From positions 1-64,000 of IMG/VR virus record IMGVR_UViG_3300037827_000415: a DNA stretch of 64,000 bases. The stretch is one strand, 5' to 3'. The stretch is from a virus. Below, one piece after another: positions 26,243-41,478 of this stretch (positions are counted from its first letter, which is position 1; every line of letters begins with the position of its first letter). The notes beneath the pieces were generated by a model. The model was not told the origin of the DNA. It did no database searches and saw nothing but the letters and a program-made list of their open reading frames with translations. The position numbers and the translations under genes are program-made.

Positions 26243-28168
26243 CTAGGCGAACAGGACGCCTTGTTCAGTTTTTGAAGATACAGCTCTTTTGCAATTCTTG
26301 ATAGCGGCGTCGAAATATGATTCCTTTAGTTCGATTCCATAAAATCGCCTTTCCAACTGGATGGCGCTGTAGCCGGTGCTCCCCACGCCGCAAAAACAGT
26401 CCAGTACCAGTTCGCCGGGATTACTCCACAGCCGCACGCACCGCTCGCAAATGTCGAGCGGGAACGCACAGATATGCCGCGTGTCCTCTTCGTCCTTCGC
26501 TTCAAGCGTATTGAGCGTCCGCGACCAGCGGATATCCGACCAGCACGCTTCGGCCCAGTCAATCCACTGATTGCGGCTCACTTGGTTTTCGCTGTCGATC
26601 AGAACCGCATTCTCGCCCGGCTTGCGGAACTTGATGATGTAGTCCGGCAGACATGGGGCCGACTGCGAGCGATCGCGTTCAAGGCCGACGAATTGCAGGC
26701 GACGTGATCTTGTGCGAATCGCCTCGGAATTATGCGTGAGAATGCAGCTTTCCGTCGCGAACAGACCGTCCTCGGCTTCGACCGTGATGCACGTGCAAGG
26801 AAATTCGCCGATCTCTTCGATGGCAACGACAGCCCGCCTGAATCCCTTCTGCGGCGGAATCCACTTCGCGATCTTGTCCTTGAACCTGAACGGACATATT
26901 CCGTCTCGAAGACGCGGGGTCAACTCGTAAATCACTCTACCGAATCGCGTTTCGCCGTTGTGGTGATACTTGCTGCCCGCTCGTGCGATCTTTGTGCAGA
27001 TTCCGCCAAGCGACTCTACAAGAAACTTGAAGTCGTCAGCCAGACGCTCCGACGTTGTGTGGAACGCTACGCCGCCCTTCACCTTGTTTTTTCCGTCCGT
27101 ATCGAGCAGCCCCGCAATCAATAGTCGGCGGGACATTTCGTCCGCGAAAAGATAGGTCGGCGGGACGAACTTATCCCAAGCGTGCTTGCCTTCCAGTCCG
27201 AGCGACCGAATCGCGTGCAGGACGTCATTACGATGCCATTCCGGGCATGTGATGTTCCAGGTTGAAGCATCGTTGCCGCGCTCGGATCCGGGATTCAGCC
27301 GGAGGCTATGATTATGTGGAAGAGACAGGTTCTCTACGATTCCGCGTTGCGTGCAAATTTCGACAACGCCGCGTTTCGACAGGCAGCCATCACCAAGCAG
27401 TACGCCAAGCAGATATGGATCCAGCGGCAATTGCTTTGCGTTGAATTTTACGGCCCCGCCAATCGTCGGCAGGAAAAACTTCGCCGATCCGCTTGGCTGA
27501 AATAGCCCGCGACTCTTGATCTCCTCCGTCTTTAGTACGATTTGCCGCCTTTCTCCGTGAATTTGAGCGGTAGTCATCACTGACCAGAGATGGTTGCCGT
27601 CGCAGTCAACTGAAGACCCGTCGGACGTCGAGACGCGAAACAGCCTTCTCGTGCCTTGCGGCCACACGCCCACGACACGCGTCGGCTGACCAGAAGATCC
27701 GATCACTTGATCATTGATGGCGAGAGACTGAATCTCGCTCCATCCTTGAGGCGTCAAAACCCTCGATCCGTCTCGTAGAGCCTGCGGATTCTTTGAACAC
27801 ATGACTTCGCCGTCGTAAATGAATCCCGCTCGCTGGCCAAGGCGAATGTTGAGCCCGCGAAAGTCGTGAACGCCTTCGCCGCCCACTCGCTTCAGGCCGG
27901 GGATTTGCATGACGTGGCAAGCGAACACGCGGCCCGGCTTGAGTACGCGAAGGATCCTGCGATAGAAGAATGCAAGATGGACTTTGGACTCCGCCCCGTA
28001 GCTTTCGACGTTGCCGATGTCTGACTCGCTGTCGCTGTACGCGAACAATGCGGGGAAGGCCGGGCTGCACATGGCGAAATCGACTGACGATTCCGGCATG
28101 ACGCTCTCCATATGGGGGATAGCATCGCCGTGGTGGATGAAGAATTCTTCGCCTTCGGGAATCAGCAT
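26243..28168 (-). CDS. Beta-class N4C/N6A DNA methyltransferase containing an intein
   Basis: Motif IV variant SPAF, LRVLKPGR, HICAFP, motif I LDCFCGVGST; start overlaps the upstream TGA. Confidence 0.88.
   Translation of the reverse strand: MLIPEGEEFFIHHGDAIPHMESVMPESSVDFAMCSPAFPALFAYSDSESDIGNVESYGAESKVHLAFFYRRILRVLKPGRVFACHVMQIPGLKRVGGEGVHDFRGLNIRLGQRAGFIYDGEVMCSKNPQALRDGSRVLTPQGWSEIQSLAINDQVIGSSGQPTRVVGVWPQGTRRLFRVSTSDGSSVDCDGNHLWSVMTTAQIHGERRQIVLKTEEIKSRGLFQPSGSAKFFLPTIGGAVKFNAKQLPLDPYLLGVLLGDGCLSKRGVVEICTQRGIVENLSLPHNHSLRLNPGSERGNDASTWNITCPEWHRNDVLHAIRSLGLEGKHAWDKFVPPTYLFADEMSRRLLIAGLLDTDGKNKVKGGVAFHTTSERLADDFKFLVESLGGICTKIARAGSKYHHNGETRFGRVIYELTPRLRDGICPFRFKDKIAKWIPPQKGFRRAVVAIEEIGEFPCTCITVEAEDGLFATESCILTHNSEAIRTRSRRLQFVGLERDRSQSAPCLPDYIIKFRKPGENAVLIDSENQVSRNQWIDWAEACWSDIRWSRTLNTLEAKDEEDTRHICAFPLDICERCVRLWSNPGELVLDCFCGVGSTGYSAIQLERRFYGIELKESYFDAAIKNCKRAVSSKTEQGVLFA
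26729..27781 (-). mobile_element. 351-aa intein with LAGLIDADG endonuclease, class 3 signature
   Basis: Starts ALRDGSRVLTP, block B DGNHLW, LLGVLLGDG and IAGLLDTDG, block F CTCITV, ends LTHN followed by Ser. Confidence 0.9.
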
Positions 28169-28602
28169 CAGTCGCACCTTTCGCCAAAGCCTTCGCGTTC
28201 GTGAAACTGATAGTCGATTTTGTGGCCCGGAACGCCGCAGAGTCGTCCGCGGATTTCGTGCCATTCTTCCGAGTTTTCTTCGACGGTTTGCATTTTCAGG
28301 ATTGCGTCGCCGACTTCCGTATCCCGCACGACCCAGATTTCACGACCGCGATTGAACGGAAGGATCCGCACTTGCAATCCATACCGGTGGCCGACCTTCA
28401 GGCAAATATCAAAGACGACCTTGAACCATTCTTCCGACGGCCGGAACATCGCGGCTCGACATGCCCCGAGATAAATCTTCTCCGCTTCTCCGCTGACGAA
28501 TCCGGCCGCGAACACCGGAATTAAAGCCGGGTCCATGCCGGTGAATTGTTCAAGCCCAACTTTGTAAAGCGGGCCGCACGTCTGCGGTTTCAAAGTTGCC
28601 AT
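28168..28602 (-). CDS. Hypothetical protein
   Basis: 144 aa between helicase and methyltransferase. Confidence 0.65.
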   Translation of the reverse strand: MATLKPQTCGPLYKVGLEQFTGMDPALIPVFAAGFVSGEAEKIYLGACRAAMFRPSEEWFKVVFDICLKVGHRYGLQVRILPFNRGREIWVVRDTEVGDAILKMQTVEENSEEWHEIRGRLCGVPGHKIDYQFHEREGFGERCD

Positions 28603-31905: not shown

Positions 31906-32005
31906 GCCGGGGTGGCGGAATTGGTAGACGCATCGGCCTTGGAAGCCGACGGGGGCCTCTTGCTAAGGGATCACCCCCGTGCGGGTTCAAATCCCGTCCC
32001 CGGCA
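31906..32005 (+). tRNA. Atypical tRNA: anticodon TGG (Pro) on a class II, Leu-like body
   Basis: Acceptor GCCGGGG/CCCCGGC+A73; D arm GGCGGAATTGGTAGACGC; anticodon arm TCGGC-CTTGGAA-GCCGA; 31-nt variable arm; T arm GCGGG-TTCAAAT-CCCGT; CCA not encoded. Confidence 0.9.
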
Positions 32006-32622: not shown

Positions 32623-33591
32623 TCACTGAATCCCGCCCCACAACTGATCGATGCCATCTCGCAGAATTGGCTGGCGATACATGAGACGTCGGCCAGCAAT
32701 GCCGTTGATTGCGACGTCCATTCGCTGCGAGTCCTTCATCTTTCGATTGTTCCAGCGGAAGCTGAATTCATCGACGTAGCGATGCAGGTGACGCTTGCCA
32801 ATCTGGTGGAACGTGCCGTAGTGACCACGCTTGAGCAACGCGAAAAAGCTTTCGGCCGTATTCGTCGTCACGAGCGTTTCGCCACCATTCGTCCTGCGGA
32901 CGTATTCACGCTGCTTGTGCAACGAGCGGTGATGGCCACCGGCAAACTCGCGGCCGACGTGGTTATAGAGCGGCACTTCATCGGTGAACAAAGTCGAGTT
33001 GCGATCGGCGTATTTGAACAACACTTCTCGCAGCGTCGATCCTTTCAGATCGTCAACCGGCGTTGCGTGGGCTCGGCCGCCACGTTCCACGAGCAACGCC
33101 ACTGCTTTTTTTGATGTGCCGCGTCCCGCCTTGCTGACGCCCCTGTACCGGGGCTTGCCGCCGACGTAAGTTTCGTCTGCTTCCAGCTCGCCCTTCAACG
33201 CTCCGGCCAGTGGCTCTTGCTTCATCGCGTACCGAATGCGATGGGCCATGAACCATGCGGTTTTGTAGGTCACGCCGAGCATCCGATGGAGCTGATGGGC
33301 CGACACTCCCTTTTTGCTCGCGGACATCAAATGCAGGGCCAGCAGCCAAATGCGAATCTTGATGTGCCCGCGTTCCATTACGGTTCCGACCGTCACCGTG
33401 AACTGCTTGCGGCACTTCGGATTCTTGCACTTGTAAACGCCGGGCCGCGTCGATTTTCCGGCCAGCTTGATCGACTCATTCGACATGCAATGCGGGCAGG
33501 CTCGACGCTCGCCATTCGCTCCCCAGCGGGTTGCCTCAAGATAATCGCGGGCCTCATCTTCTGTCAGCTTGCTGAGTTCGGCGAAATTCAT
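32623..33591 (-). CDS. IS1595-family (ISXO2-like) DDE transposase
   Basis: Zn ribbon CPHC..CKNPKC, HTH, EADETYVGG, TDE, TNTAESFF, YVDEFSFRWN. Confidence 0.95.
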   Translation of the reverse strand: MNFAELSKLTEDEARDYLEATRWGANGERRACPHCMSNESIKLAGKSTRPGVYKCKNPKCRKQFTVTVGTVMERGHIKIRIWLLALHLMSASKKGVSAHQLHRMLGVTYKTAWFMAHRIRYAMKQEPLAGALKGELEADETYVGGKPRYRGVSKAGRGTSKKAVALLVERGGRAHATPVDDLKGSTLREVLFKYADRNSTLFTDEVPLYNHVGREFAGGHHRSLHKQREYVRRTNGGETLVTTNTAESFFALLKRGHYGTFHQIGKRHLHRYVDEFSFRWNNRKMKDSQRMDVAINGIAGRRLMYRQPILRDGIDQLWGGIQ

Positions 33592-33665
33592 TGCGGGCTC
33601 CTTTGTTGACACCCGCATTATCGGTAATTACACTTGGTTTGTCAAGTATACAATTCCGAATTTTT

Positions 33666-37837: not shown

Positions 37838-38832
37838 GAAGATCGGCCCAGTGCGTCACGAATCCGAATGCCCAATGACCCGGCAACGTGGCCCAGCAGT
37901 TTAGCTTGTATCCCACGCGAATGGTGCCATCGATGTTTCTCATCAGCACGGCTTCGCCAAGAATAGGGGGCCGCTTGCCCGCGTCGATCCACTCAATCTC
38001 TTCTTTCATGCCGACACCACATCAATATCTTGGTTGACCTTTTCGAGCACCCGAGCCTTCGCGAACGACTTGAGCCGATCGATCACGGCCCGCACGTCGT
38101 TCGCCGAGTTGACCAGAACATCGCGATTCGCGTCGAACTTGTGCCGGCAGAAGAGCGTGATTTCATAGCCGTCGCCATCATTGGGCAGCAGCTTGTCGAC
38201 GCCCTCGATGTGAGCCGCAATCGCCAGCCGCATCGCCTCAAGGGGATGTTCGCTGCTTGGGTTTCCATCGCTCATGCGTGCCTCCCCTGTGGTGTGCGGC
38301 CGGTGCCCGTTGTTTCTTCCGCTCTTGCTGCTCGATTCGCCGCGTCGGATCGGTGCTCGCGTCCGTCACGCCGTCGCTCATGTGATCGACGATGCCTTTG
38401 CAGTCTGGGCAAACGTACTGATCGCCCACGAGTTTTGCGCGTCGACCACAGAGCGGGCACTTCGGCACCGCGTTGATCGCTCGAATTGGCTCGCTGTACG
38501 TGATCCGTTCGCACAGCGGGCAGCGGAAGCCGATCAGCTTGCCGCCTTCGTAAAGCCGCTCCATCGGCACGCGACACTTCGGCTGGCAAAGCGGTGGATG
38601 GCCGATGGTCCACCGCATGCCGTCGGTGTGGTTGTCGCTCATCTCCGCTCCCAAGTCTCGGCATTGTATCGATCGCGCCATTCATTCCGGTCTTTTGTCA
38701 GCCGATCGATTTCATCGATTAGCTCTAACGCTTCTCGGTAGCCGGGACACGGAAACGGAGGCGAATTTAAAACATCGCTTTGCTTCCAGCACAATGCGTT
38801 GCTGCGGATTTTGGCCAAGCGGTTCGGCGTCA
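37773..38832 (-). other. Run of small hypothetical CDSs (37773-38009, 38006-38275, 38238-38642 Zn-ribbon, 38639-38832)
   Basis: Overlapping small ORFs; 37773-38009 has a DUF551-like WID...P...VTHWA.LP pattern. Confidence 0.55.
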
Positions 38833-39174
38833 TGGCTTGGTGGTCGCCGGCACGGCCGCGACCGCGGGGACCGCTGCAACGGGCGTTGTTGCAACCGGAG
38901 CGACCTTCGCCAGCGTGGACGTGAGCCACGGCCCAATTGATGAGACGAGAGCGGACGCGATCGCGGCCCCAGCCCCGGACGGCAGGCCGACCGTGCTGAG
39001 CTTTGCCGTCAGGGCGGTTTCAAGCGTGGGCAGTTCGGCCGCGAGCTTCGTCAGCAACTTGCCCGCTTCGGTCGACGCGAGCGATTCAATCTCCGGTTCA
39101 GCCGCGGTGAATGCCGATTCAATTTCGCTGCCGATTGTGCCGAGTTTCGCTTTCAGGTTGGACGCGAGAGTCAT
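38830..39174 (-). CDS. Ala-rich protein with P/V/T/A tail
   Basis: AGGAG upstream of ATG; amphipathic helices. Confidence 0.65.
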   Translation of the reverse strand: MTLASNLKAKLGTIGSEIESAFTAAEPEIESLASTEAGKLLTKLAAELPTLETALTAKLSTVGLPSGAGAAIASALVSSIGPWLTSTLAKVAPVATTPVAAVPAVAAVPATTKP

Positions 39175-39277
39175 TGTGCCTTTGCTCCTGTTCGATGTGA
39201 AAGAAAAACTGCGGCCAAAATTGTCCCTGACCGCAGGTCGCGGCACGTCCAACAAGGATGCCCGCTTTCCCGAGATT

Positions 39278-39380
39278 CGTCACCGGCGGGGATCGAACCC
39301 GCATCACACGGTTGAGTTTGCACCCGGTTTCCCGGAGGTTTCTCCATGGCCGTGCATCCTACCAGTTAGACGAAAGTGAC
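39278..39380 (-). tRNA. tRNA-Glu-like RNA with a 38-nt anticodon loop
   Basis: GTCACTT/CGGTGAC+G; D stem GTCT/GGAT; anticodon stem CACGG/CCGTG; 4-nt variable loop; T arm GCGGG-TTCGATC-CCCGC. Confidence 0.75.
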
Positions 39381-39443
39381 GACGCTCATTTTTATCGCGA
39401 CCAATTGCGGGGTGAACGAGCAAACCCAGTCACGCTTTCAATT

Positions 39444-39535
39444 AGTTTCCGGCTGGAGTCGAACCAGCACCTCACTCAATGACCACCGGATTCTCACCCG
39501 GATCGGCGTGCGTGCACCACTGGCACTACGGAAAC
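39444..39535 (-). tRNA. tRNA-like RNA with a 28-nt anticodon loop (isotype unassignable)
   Basis: GTTTCCG/CGGAAAC; D stem GTGC/GCAC; anticodon stem CACGC/GAGTG (one mismatch); T arm GCTGG-TTCGACT-CCAGC. Confidence 0.7.
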
Positions 39536-39623
39536 TACGGTGCTTTTTCGCGACACCCACGCAGGGCCAGATTTTCCCCTGACAGCGGTTTGAAACGGAC
39601 CACTTACCGTACACATCTATTGG

Positions 39624-39842
39624 TCAACCCAGTGGGAAAACCCGCGTTTCAAGTGATTCGATCTTATTAAACAGCACGCCCATCCCGAAAAGAATCTGCT
39701 CAGCAATAATGGACGTACGCGAACTTTCTTGATCGAGTAGCTCTTTGAGATAAGCCGGATTTGGCAAAAGCTTTGCACACGGTTCGCAGTAACACGATTC
39801 GCCGCTCAGGGGGCGGTCGCAGAGATAGCATCTTGTTCTCAT
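39624..39842 (-). CDS. Small zinc-finger protein
   Basis: CYLC...CEPC; overlaps the YqaJ stop. Confidence 0.55.
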   Translation of the reverse strand: MRTRCYLCDRPLSGESCYCEPCAKLLPNPAYLKELLDQESSRTSIIAEQILFGMGVLFNKIESLETRVFPLG

Positions 39843-40780
39843 TGCACAGTCAACGCCAGCGGCTTCGGGGCTTTCACAATTCTTGTGTCCACTTTAACAA
39901 ACGACGAAACAACATGCTCAGCGATGCTCTGCTCTTGCCGCCGAAACGCGGTCCCGTCGCCCAATATGCCGTACTGAGCGTCGGCCATTTCAAACAGCCA
40001 CTTTGACTTGATCGCGGCCTTCCGGGCGTCATTCGCTTTGTTCGATTGGCCAAGGGCTTCGTACTCGGCCTTCAGCAGCTTCGACTCATCGCTCAGGTCG
40101 ACGGCCTTCCCGTCCTTCAGACCGAACATGCTCTTGATCGTTCCGAGCGTCGAAGCGTGATCCCACGACGGCTCCGGGGCTTCGTGGTCGGCGAGCTTCC
40201 GCACGAATTCGCGTTCAATCTCGACCATGCTCGCGATCAGCCGCTCGTTTCGCTGGACGCGATAGATTTTGAACGCGGCACCGATTATGACCGGCACCCA
40301 GATGACTTCCAATTCAAGCACGGCACACGCCTGTTGACATTGGACGTTATAGCTCGCCGGAATGTCGTCGGTCCCCGGCTTGCCCCATTGATCGGCCATG
40401 AACTGATTGGTCCGCTTGGCTTCGATGCCGTGCGGCTCCGCGATCACGAGTCCGTCGGGACTGACAGTCATCCAAGGCCATTTCTTGCTGCGATAACTGG
40501 GCGGCTTTTGTGTGTAGACCTTCGTGCCGGTTTTAGCTCGGAACATCCGCAGAATCGCGGGCTCGAAAAACTTCCCCATAAGCATCGAGTCGTTTTCGTC
40601 GGGCTCGGGGTCGAGCCCCAGCTTGCGGCGGTAGATGCTCAACGGCGTGTCGTATTCGCTCAGCCCGCAGACTGCCGCAGCTTCGGAACCGCCGACGCTG
40701 TTTTCGCGGGCCGTGTGCCATGCAAGAGAGCCTTGGGCGGCGACGACTTCGGCGGAGTCGAATTGCGGGAAGTTCGGCAT
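39839..40780 (-). CDS. YqaJ-like viral recombinase exonuclease
   Basis: W...R..SVGGSEAAAV, GKFFEP, VSPDG, IEAK, YNVQCQ. Confidence 0.9.
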   Translation of the reverse strand: MPNFPQFDSAEVVAAQGSLAWHTARENSVGGSEAAAVCGLSEYDTPLSIYRRKLGLDPEPDENDSMLMGKFFEPAILRMFRAKTGTKVYTQKPPSYRSKKWPWMTVSPDGLVIAEPHGIEAKRTNQFMADQWGKPGTDDIPASYNVQCQQACAVLELEVIWVPVIIGAAFKIYRVQRNERLIASMVEIEREFVRKLADHEAPEPSWDHASTLGTIKSMFGLKDGKAVDLSDESKLLKAEYEALGQSNKANDARKAAIKSKWLFEMADAQYGILGDGTAFRRQEQSIAEHVVSSFVKVDTRIVKAPKPLALTVQ

Positions 40781-41204: not shown

Positions 41205-41399
41205 TCAAACAACCGGACTCGCTTCCGGCTGAGATGGGTCGCTCTGTAGCTCTTCGCGAATCACGCTGATTGATCGGTCGGCGTCGATGCCCAGTCGGCA
41301 GTTGTTGGGACCGATTCGCACAACTGCGACCTTGATAATTGGATAGCCAGGAACTTTAATCAGGATCGCTTCGTCTTTCTTTCTCGAAAGCACCAACAT
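41205..41399 (-). CDS. csrA: Carbon storage regulator CsrA/RsmA family
   Basis: MLVLSRKKDEAILI...VVRI...RLGIDA..SISVIREEL. Confidence 0.88.
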   Translation of the reverse strand: MLVLSRKKDEAILIKVPGYPIIKVAVVRIGPNNCRLGIDADRSISVIREELQSDPSQPEASPVV

Positions 41400-41478
41400 T
41401 GTGAATCCTTTCATGCCCGCATGTCGTTTCGCTCTGCCCCTGTTTAGCATTTCACCGGGCATCGGGTCAAATTTTATT

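Follow-up and report, generated by a model that had tools for sequence, protein, structure and literature searches.

The phage genome in record IMGVR_UViG_3300037827_000415 is 82,866 bp long, carries direct terminal repeats and is rated complete; the window analysed here comprises its first 64 kb (64,000 nucleotides). Soil and rhizosphere sequencing runs contain DNA nearly identical to this phage, and no close relative was found among GenBank phages. The 82.9-kb genome is devoid of a canonical tRNA set: default ARAGORN calls no genes, and Rfam yields a single one (T3), which lies on an IS1595 element. Two adjacent units, which we term T2 (39444..39535) and T1 (39278..39380), nevertheless have the shape of tRNA genes. 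Both lie on the minus strand, as do all of the genes around them, which run leftward.

T2 is 92 nt long, with G1 at 39535, the discriminator U at 39444 and no encoded CCA. Its acceptor stem (GUUUCCG/CGGAAAC) comprises seven Watson-Crick pairs and is followed by U8 and A9; four Watson-Crick pairs (GUGC/GCAC) form the D stem, which closes the loop CAGUGGU and is followed by G26. A 4-nt variable loop (AGGU) leads into the T arm, GCUGG-UUCGACU-CCAGC, whose 5-bp stem is again entirely Watson-Crick. An earlier, sequence-only reading had described the acceptor, D and T stems of this gene as perfect, and a segment table of the minus strand confirms that description. By the same segment and pair table, T2 has the body of a tRNA, with a cloverleaf, a 7-bp acceptor stem, a D arm with GG and a T loop of the UUCRA type. 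Position 14 is C rather than A, A21 is missing, and the anticodon stem (CACGC/GAGUG) includes a G.A mismatch, making T2 the more deviant body of the pair. The Rfam tRNA model (RF00005, gathering threshold 29 bits) finds no match in T2 at E values up to 10, and ARAGORN with its intron option (-i) calls it at default stringency. The variable loop and T arm are identical to those of a Gemmataceae tRNA-Phe (24 nt) and a Verrucomicrobiota tRNA-Met, among others. In five genomes that share this T arm, the 5′ halves of T1 and T2 have no match.

The anticodon loop of T2 is replaced by a 28-nt segment, CGAUCCGGGUGAGAAUCCGGUGGUCAUU (39478..39505, minus strand). Within it, nucleotides 39486..39501 form the hairpin CCGGGU-GAGA-AUCCGG, capped by a GNRA tetraloop. 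This fold had been proposed from the letters, and the calculations bear it out: with the acceptor and T stems held fixed, the hairpin pairs with a probability of ∼0.86, compared to ∼0 for the stem that ARAGORN draws. A class-I cloverleaf with the inner hairpin has a predicted free energy of −31.6 kcal/mol. The lowest-energy form, at −32.2 kcal/mol, is a variant in which the arm becomes an interrupted rod of 13 bp, ordered as CAC/GUG, a 6-nt 3′ bulge (CAUUGA), GCCG/UGGU, an AU bulge, CCGGGU/AUCCGG and the GAGA loop. ARAGORN instead reads T2 as a class-II-like body whose anticodon loop AU-CCG-G is separated from a following C by 8 inserted nucleotides (GUGAGAAU), at −12.8 kcal/mol; the sealed fold beats this open-loop reading by ∼19 kcal/mol. 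Read directly, the insert of T2 also contains a direct repeat, two copies of AUCCGG(G)UG.

T1 (103 nt, minus strand) has a body of the tRNA-Glu type, as indicated by U11-A24, U13.G22, a 4-nt variable loop and G73 as discriminator. A 38-nt segment takes the place of the anticodon loop and ends in A-CUC-AA. RF00005 scores T1 at 34 bits, above the gathering threshold of 29, and treats 37 nt of the anticodon loop as an insertion; ARAGORN calls T1 only at relaxed stringency (-i -ps). The 38 nt can form three competing small hairpins, GGAG-AAAC-CUCC, CCGG-GAAA-CCGG (39324..39335, minus strand) and GGGU-GCAA-ACUC, of which the latter two are GNRA-capped. CUC is the Glu anticodon, it lies at the normal distance from the 3′ stem strand, and A37 comes next. 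Because A-CUC-AA occupies its normal place on a Glu-type body, T1 probably descends from tRNA-Glu(CUC). At the corresponding place, T2 has the triplet UCA and then U, unlike a normal loop. Fold and deletion tests gave neither gene a 7-nt anticodon loop with U33 or an accessible anticodon. Because the modelled arm of T2 is sealed and the hairpin GGGU-GCAA-ACUC of T1 buries the CUC triplet, neither RNA is predicted to present an anticodon, and very probably T1 and T2 cannot read codons.

On the plus strand, the T1 insert reads GGAGG-7 nt-ATG (39327-39346), an arrangement like that of a ribosome-binding site; the frame runs for only seven codons, and the resemblance is probably due to chance. A 37-nt match of the insert to the start of a Gemmataceae gene was likewise set aside as a chance Shine-Dalgarno/ATG look-alike. 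Two plus-strand open reading frames that span T1 and T2 (38780-39379 and 39376-39582) were rejected as genes, as they lack the GC3 signature that genes show here and cross a terminator.

We next consider how far these structures exceed what chance would supply. Compared with shuffled sequences, the insert of T2 has a z-score of −2.05 (4% of shuffles are as good) and that of T1 a z-score of −2.38 (2%); z-scores for the whole units, at −1.0 to −1.45, are unremarkable. In 30 dinucleotide shuffles of the 82.9-kb genome, ARAGORN made 0.03 calls per shuffled genome at default stringency and 0.83 at relaxed stringency. The pattern TCCGGG..CCGG..GUG-4nt-GC.GGUUCGA occurs in the window only in T1 and T2, and had no matches in 100 shuffles. 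Pairs of CCGG spaced 7–16 nt apart are found once per ∼1.6 kb, which puts the probability of both loops holding one by chance at ∼4e-4.

The two units have more in common than their position. Both contain the hairpin motif UCCGGG...CCGG(G)UG, use G-CACG as the 5′ strand of their anticodon stem and have a variable loop of 4 nt. Both are preceded by a leader motif, GUCGCGA(U)AAA..A.CGU, that ends 8–10 nt before +1 in each case; local alignment of the leaders gives a P value of ∼0.007–0.012, with the shared position not counted, and the motif with its A-run is found nowhere else in the genome. Both trailers begin with AAU and contain GAAAGCG. The CCGG-based GNRA hairpins differ in detail, with a 4-bp stem and GAAA in T1 and a 6-bp stem and GAGA in T2. 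The sequence-only reading had placed a related hairpin at the same site on unrelated tRNA bodies and had counted the genes as two parallel cases. The hairpin is indeed present in both genes, although not at exactly the same site, as T1 has 10 more nucleotides on its 5′ side. The bodies can hardly be called unrelated, given the shared leader, trailer, GCACG strand, 4-nt variable loop and leader–trailer pairings. Nor do the genes count as two cases; they represent one design twice.

Pairing between the leader and trailer may enclose each unit. In T2, the leader motif GUCGCG (39549..39554, minus strand) can pair with its complement CGUGAC in the trailer (39429..39434), and this helix is kept in the minimum-energy fold of 39426-39557, together with a 9-bp acceptor helix that includes the pairs N-1:N73 and N-2:N74. 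In T1, the leader motif GGUCGCG (39396..39402) has a perfect 7-nt complement, CGCGACC, in the trailer (39236..39242), abutting the terminator. The two pairs beyond the acceptor stem can form in both units (A-U and U-A in T2, C-G and U-A in T1), and the clamps are retained in both minimum-energy folds. One caveat here is that hexamers of the GUCGCG type are common in this genome, and hence these predicted clamps are a lead rather than a result.

The sharing of leader, trailer, stem strand and clamps speaks against independent origins, and we conclude from the sequences that T1 and T2 are two diverged copies of one design. Their bodies are identical at 36 of 57 positions (63%), a value not far above that for unrelated tRNAs, and differ at the other 21. 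Five stem pairs have changed on both sides between the copies and still pair. As both hairpins are retained and the flanks are shared, the comparison suggests that the sealed shape was maintained while the copies diverged. This argument presupposes that T1 and T2 are paralogs; compensatory differences are also seen between any two tRNAs.

The pair is followed, ∼40 nt after T1, by a strong intrinsic terminator (39199..39236, minus strand) consisting of a 12-pair stem, six pairs of which are G-C, and then UUUUUCUUUC. This terminator ends the T2–T1 unit, and the gene beyond it has its own promoter-like site. A sigma-70 scan identified no promoter immediately ahead of either gene, so T2 and T1 are likely to be co-transcribed with the genes upstream. 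Directly upstream of T2 is a 72-aa ORF of zinc-ribbon-like character (CxxC..CxC; 39624-39842, minus strand) that matches no family. Its stop lies 88 nt ahead of T2; at the other end, its start and the stop of a RecE/YqaJ exonuclease gene (39839-40780, minus strand) overlap. Farther upstream, 1.7 kb from the pair, is a gene for a CsrA homologue (41205-41462, minus strand; PF02599, 55.9 bits; phrog_9500). Downstream of the terminator lie small ORFs, a replication-initiator-like gene and a primase-helicase gene, on the minus strand. RecT, HNH-AP2 genes and the IS1595 element are encoded elsewhere, as are a DNA methylase with Hint and LAGLIDADG domains (window 26243-28264, minus strand) and a large terminase with a LAGLIDADG domain (L083 14558-17488, minus strand), each with an apparent intein. 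The neighbouring genes provided no functional hint for T1 and T2 and no partner protein.

About 600 nt downstream of T1, a 147-aa ORF (38238-38681, minus strand) matches the Pfam model Zn_ribbon_TiaS at 27.7 bits, against a cut-off of 27.3. The model derives from a tRNA-modifying enzyme; the match is probably a generic zinc-ribbon one.

Two metatranscriptome libraries contain the region, exclusively as unspliced contigs that are identical to the genome and show no joints. These data are assembled contigs with even depth over 50 kb; they are uninformative on processing, splicing and expression level, and probably reflect DNA carry-over.

To look for relatives, we searched viral, metagenome and genome collections and found no homologous locus, only distant or chance matches. 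Searches of viral contigs with the RecE/YqaJ protein and the primase-helicase revealed no related loci. Scanning metagenomes with a RecE alignment yielded 80 loci, all at ≤38% identity and all devoid of similar tRNA-like genes; a RecE homologue of 84% identity lies on a JGI contig of 6.4 kb. Comparison of T1 and T2 with GenBank phages returned only T-arm-level matches to assorted tRNAs, and the single match to the composite family pattern lies inside a coding region and was dismissed as chance. When viral contigs were probed with exact 18–24-nt segments of T1 and T2, nothing was found except one 24-nt match to T1. That match, in an unrelated phage contig of 135 kb (IMGVR_UViG_3300017791_000355, 702-725), covers the T arm and 3′ acceptor strand; it did not resolve into a gene similar to T1, and ARAGORN calls no tRNA there. 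The tRNA-Glu(UUC)-like gene beside it takes relaxed stringency to be called, and the stretch as a whole (560-810) may hold further odd tRNA-like genes.

Comparison with known RNAs helps to place T1 and T2. They resemble canonical tRNAs (RF00005) in the 7-bp acceptor stem, the D arm with G18 G19, the 5-bp T stem, the UUCGA loop and the 4-nt variable loop; the score of T1 exceeds the Rfam threshold, and the lack of an encoded CCA is shared with the Gemmataceae tRNA-Phe gene. They differ from them in having structured segments of 28 nt (T2) and 38 nt (T1) in place of a 7-nt loop, and no U33; T2, lacking A14 and A21, also fails the Rfam model. In the Prevotella Lak megaphages, some tRNA genes contain 'enigmatic' introns of ∼93 nt at position 37/38, with a CU-anticodon-purine 5′ loop that stays normal (Devoto et al. 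2019, PMC6784885). There too, phage tRNA genes are overlong from extra sequence in the anticodon arm, with an unknown mechanism of removal, but the inserts of T1 and T2 are only 21–31 nt, and a canonical loop cannot be restored from them. Unlike intron-containing tRNAs of the archaeal/eukaryal type, T1 and T2 show no bulge-helix-bulge, and only the energetically poor ARAGORN reading of T2 provides AU-CCG-G/C. Group I introns have a catalytic core of over 200 nt, far beyond the 21–31 nt available here, and Rfam reports no Intron_gpI match.

YrlA-type Y RNAs are encoded beside the Ro60 gene and consist of a permuted T arm, a closed acceptor-like hairpin and a D arm (Chen et al. 2014, PMC4201824; RF02553). 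Like T1 and T2 as modelled here, they contain a non-decoding, tRNA-like module with termini held in a helix, and YrlA RNAs are substrates of tRNA enzymes. T1 and T2 differ in their normal cloverleaf order, and the YrlA model scores 15.4 bits (E = 1.4) against a gathering threshold of 69. The phage genome contains no TROVE (Ro60) gene and has no match to PF01981 (PTH2) or PF01195 (Pth). ARAGORN -m finds no tmRNA, and Rfam has no tmRNA match. Two further likenesses, by description, are to non-decoding tRNA-like RNAs and to a hairpin mounted on a tRNA body. The stable RNAs species 1 and 2 of phage T4 (rnaC, rnaD) lie in its tRNA cluster and are tRNA-like and non-decoding; they are longer than T1 and T2, and their function is unknown. 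In engineered 'tRNA scaffold' RNAs, a laboratory design, a cargo hairpin replaces the anticodon arm, and the tRNA body confers processing and nuclease resistance.

The usual explanation for phage tRNA genes is codon supply; a more recent one is that they replace the tRNAs that host defence nucleases destroy. Neither accounts for a sealed decoding loop on a retained tRNA body, which points to a third use, as a mimic, decoy or scaffold. We put roughly even chances on T1 and T2 being selected, non-decoding tRNA mimics that act as a decoy or scaffold. The genome offers no canonical tRNA set of which T1 and T2 might be strays. Because the searches found no homologous locus from which to judge covariation or conservation across phages, selection is something we infer. 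Leftward transcription, either continuing from the recombination genes or starting at a weak promoter that belongs to the pair, would cover both units and stop at the intrinsic terminator behind T1. Each unit would then fold into the L-shape of a tRNA, with the acceptor, D and T arms intact and the elbow formed by G18 G19 and UUCGA, and the anticodon arm would be zipped into a long helix with a GNRA cap, so that no anticodon is presented. The ends might be produced by RNase P and RNase Z cleavage with CCA addition, or might be clamped by the leader–trailer helices.

A sealed arm would offer anticodon nucleases no single-stranded loop. The mimic could occupy a tRNA-binding partner, most plausibly a tRNA-targeting defence or tRNA-processing enzyme of the host. 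A decoy for tRNA-targeting defence would be the best-fitting role, because an intact body with a sealed loop could occupy such a protein without being cleaved. Alternatively, the tRNA body could form a nuclease-proof scaffold on which the GNRA hairpin is presented to a protein. The decoy or sponge role, like the RNA stability and the manner of end formation supposed here, is what we infer. Examples of tRNA-targeting defence systems and phage tRNA counter-measures are documented (PMC11555353, PMC12445682). A broader proposal, which we regard as tentative and clearly less probable than the mimic reading itself, is that T1 and T2 belong to a wide, undescribed class of phage tRNA mimics: GNRA-sealed, uncleavable decoys for host tRNA-targeting defence or a tRNA-processing enzyme, with ends that are possibly clamped. 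If such a class is real, standard tools miss it. Because default ARAGORN and Rfam both overlook T2, the "non-coding gaps" of phages may hide many such RNAs.

Other explanations account for some of the same features. T1 and T2 could be functionless relics, a tRNA-Glu(CUC) gene and a second tRNA gene or duplicate, each inactivated when its anticodon loop gained a small palindromic insert or duplication. T1 still has a Glu-type body with CUC-A-A at the normal place, as expected after insertion into a working tRNA-Glu gene; the G.A pair, C14, missing A21 and Rfam failure of T2 would also fit decay; the twofold AUCCGG(G)UG repeat resembles a product of slippage; and mobile DNA is plentiful in this genome (IS1595, HNH-AP2 genes and two inteins). 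We nevertheless consider decay somewhat unlikely. Although the copies have diverged by 37%, T2 has perfect acceptor, D and T stems and T1 nearly perfect ones; each insert forms a structure with a GNRA cap, the flank motifs and terminator are retained, and phage genomes rarely keep dead DNA. The sequence-only reading had suggested that these RNAs are purposeful. This stands insofar as the units are really tRNA-shaped and GNRA-capped, and random decay explains them poorly because two such structured units sit in one terminated transcription unit; its premise of unrelated, independent bodies does not hold. Another possibility, that the pair is a cis-acting module at the end of an operon, would make the folds and clamps processing points for RNase P, Z or III, or 3′ stabilisers of the recombination-gene mRNA, with the small RNAs as by-products. 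The pair does close a long leftward string of genes, 88 nt after the last ORF and just before the terminator, and each unit is enclosed by a leader–trailer helix whose N-1:N73 and N-2:N74 pairs resemble processing stems. However, the terminator hairpin already protects the 3′ end, clamps of 6–7 bp are short for RNase III, and the module leaves unexplained why the anticodon arm is sealed and GNRA-capped in both copies. We judge it quite unlikely.

Very unlikely, in our view, is that the genes encode tRNA precursors from which host enzymes remove a short insert of a novel type (21 and 31 nt, or 8 nt if T2 is read as by ARAGORN) to yield Glu(CUC) and a second decoding tRNA. ARAGORN -i does offer an Arg(CCG) reading of T2, with U33 and G37. 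In that model the 8-nt insert occupies the classical 37/38 position, and the class-II-like body has a D stem of 3 bp, a D loop of 11 nt and a variable arm of 15 nt. The T1 loop ends in the cognate Glu anticodon CUC and then A37, and the oversized 'enigmatic intron' genes of the Lak megaphages provide a precedent (PMC6784885). Yet the Lak inserts, at ∼93 nt, come with an intact CU-GUA-U 5′ loop, and with class-I stems no deletion of a single contiguous block that leaves 7 nt gives U33 in either gene. The ARAGORN reading of T2 also carries the ∼19 kcal/mol penalty noted above. The folds contain no bulge-helix-bulge, Rfam finds no group I intron, and a six-frame search of the complete phage genome found no tRNA_int_endo, RtcB or RNA_ligase. 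These results likewise disfavour the mini-intron role that the sequence-only reading had listed among its options. No bacterium is known to splice inserts of this kind. Finally, it seems highly improbable that T1 and T2 are RNA partners of the CsrA homologue that the phage itself encodes, whether as its sponges or as its targets. The CsrA-family gene is encoded on the same strand, 1.7 kb upstream, and T1 contains AGGAUG, UGGAG and a GGGAAA hairpin loop, but GGA density is ordinary: the best 120-nt window falls in the 5% tail, and windows of 300 and 460 nt are unremarkable. Known Csr/Rsm sponges have GGA in most loops; T1 and T2 lack such an abundance of GGA motifs in hairpin loops, and the T2 insert contains none at all. 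The mimic reading thus remains the one that we prefer.

The third tRNA gene of the window, T3 (31906-32005, plus strand), is of a different kind. It scores 60 bits with RF00005 and is missed by default ARAGORN. Its class-II, tRNA-Leu-like body has the D arm GCG-GAAUUGGUAGA-CGC, A73, a variable arm of ∼31 nt and the canonical loop CU-UGG-AA, which carries a Pro anticodon. T3 adjoins the IS1595 transposase gene (32623-33618). Contigs from several sequencing runs break, or continue into other sequence, within the IS1595 element (window 32776-33660), with loose ends at 32820, 33236-33294 and 33660, a pattern to be expected if the samples contain related copies of the IS or variants without it.

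The genome also shows a strong bias in one palindromic tetranucleotide. GCGC occurs at 55 sites genome-wide, compared to ∼583 expected from neighbouring trinucleotides (ratio 0.09), and counts of CGCG, CCGG and GGCC over the whole genome are near expectation. The avoidance of GCGC suggests pressure from a GCGC-specific restriction system.
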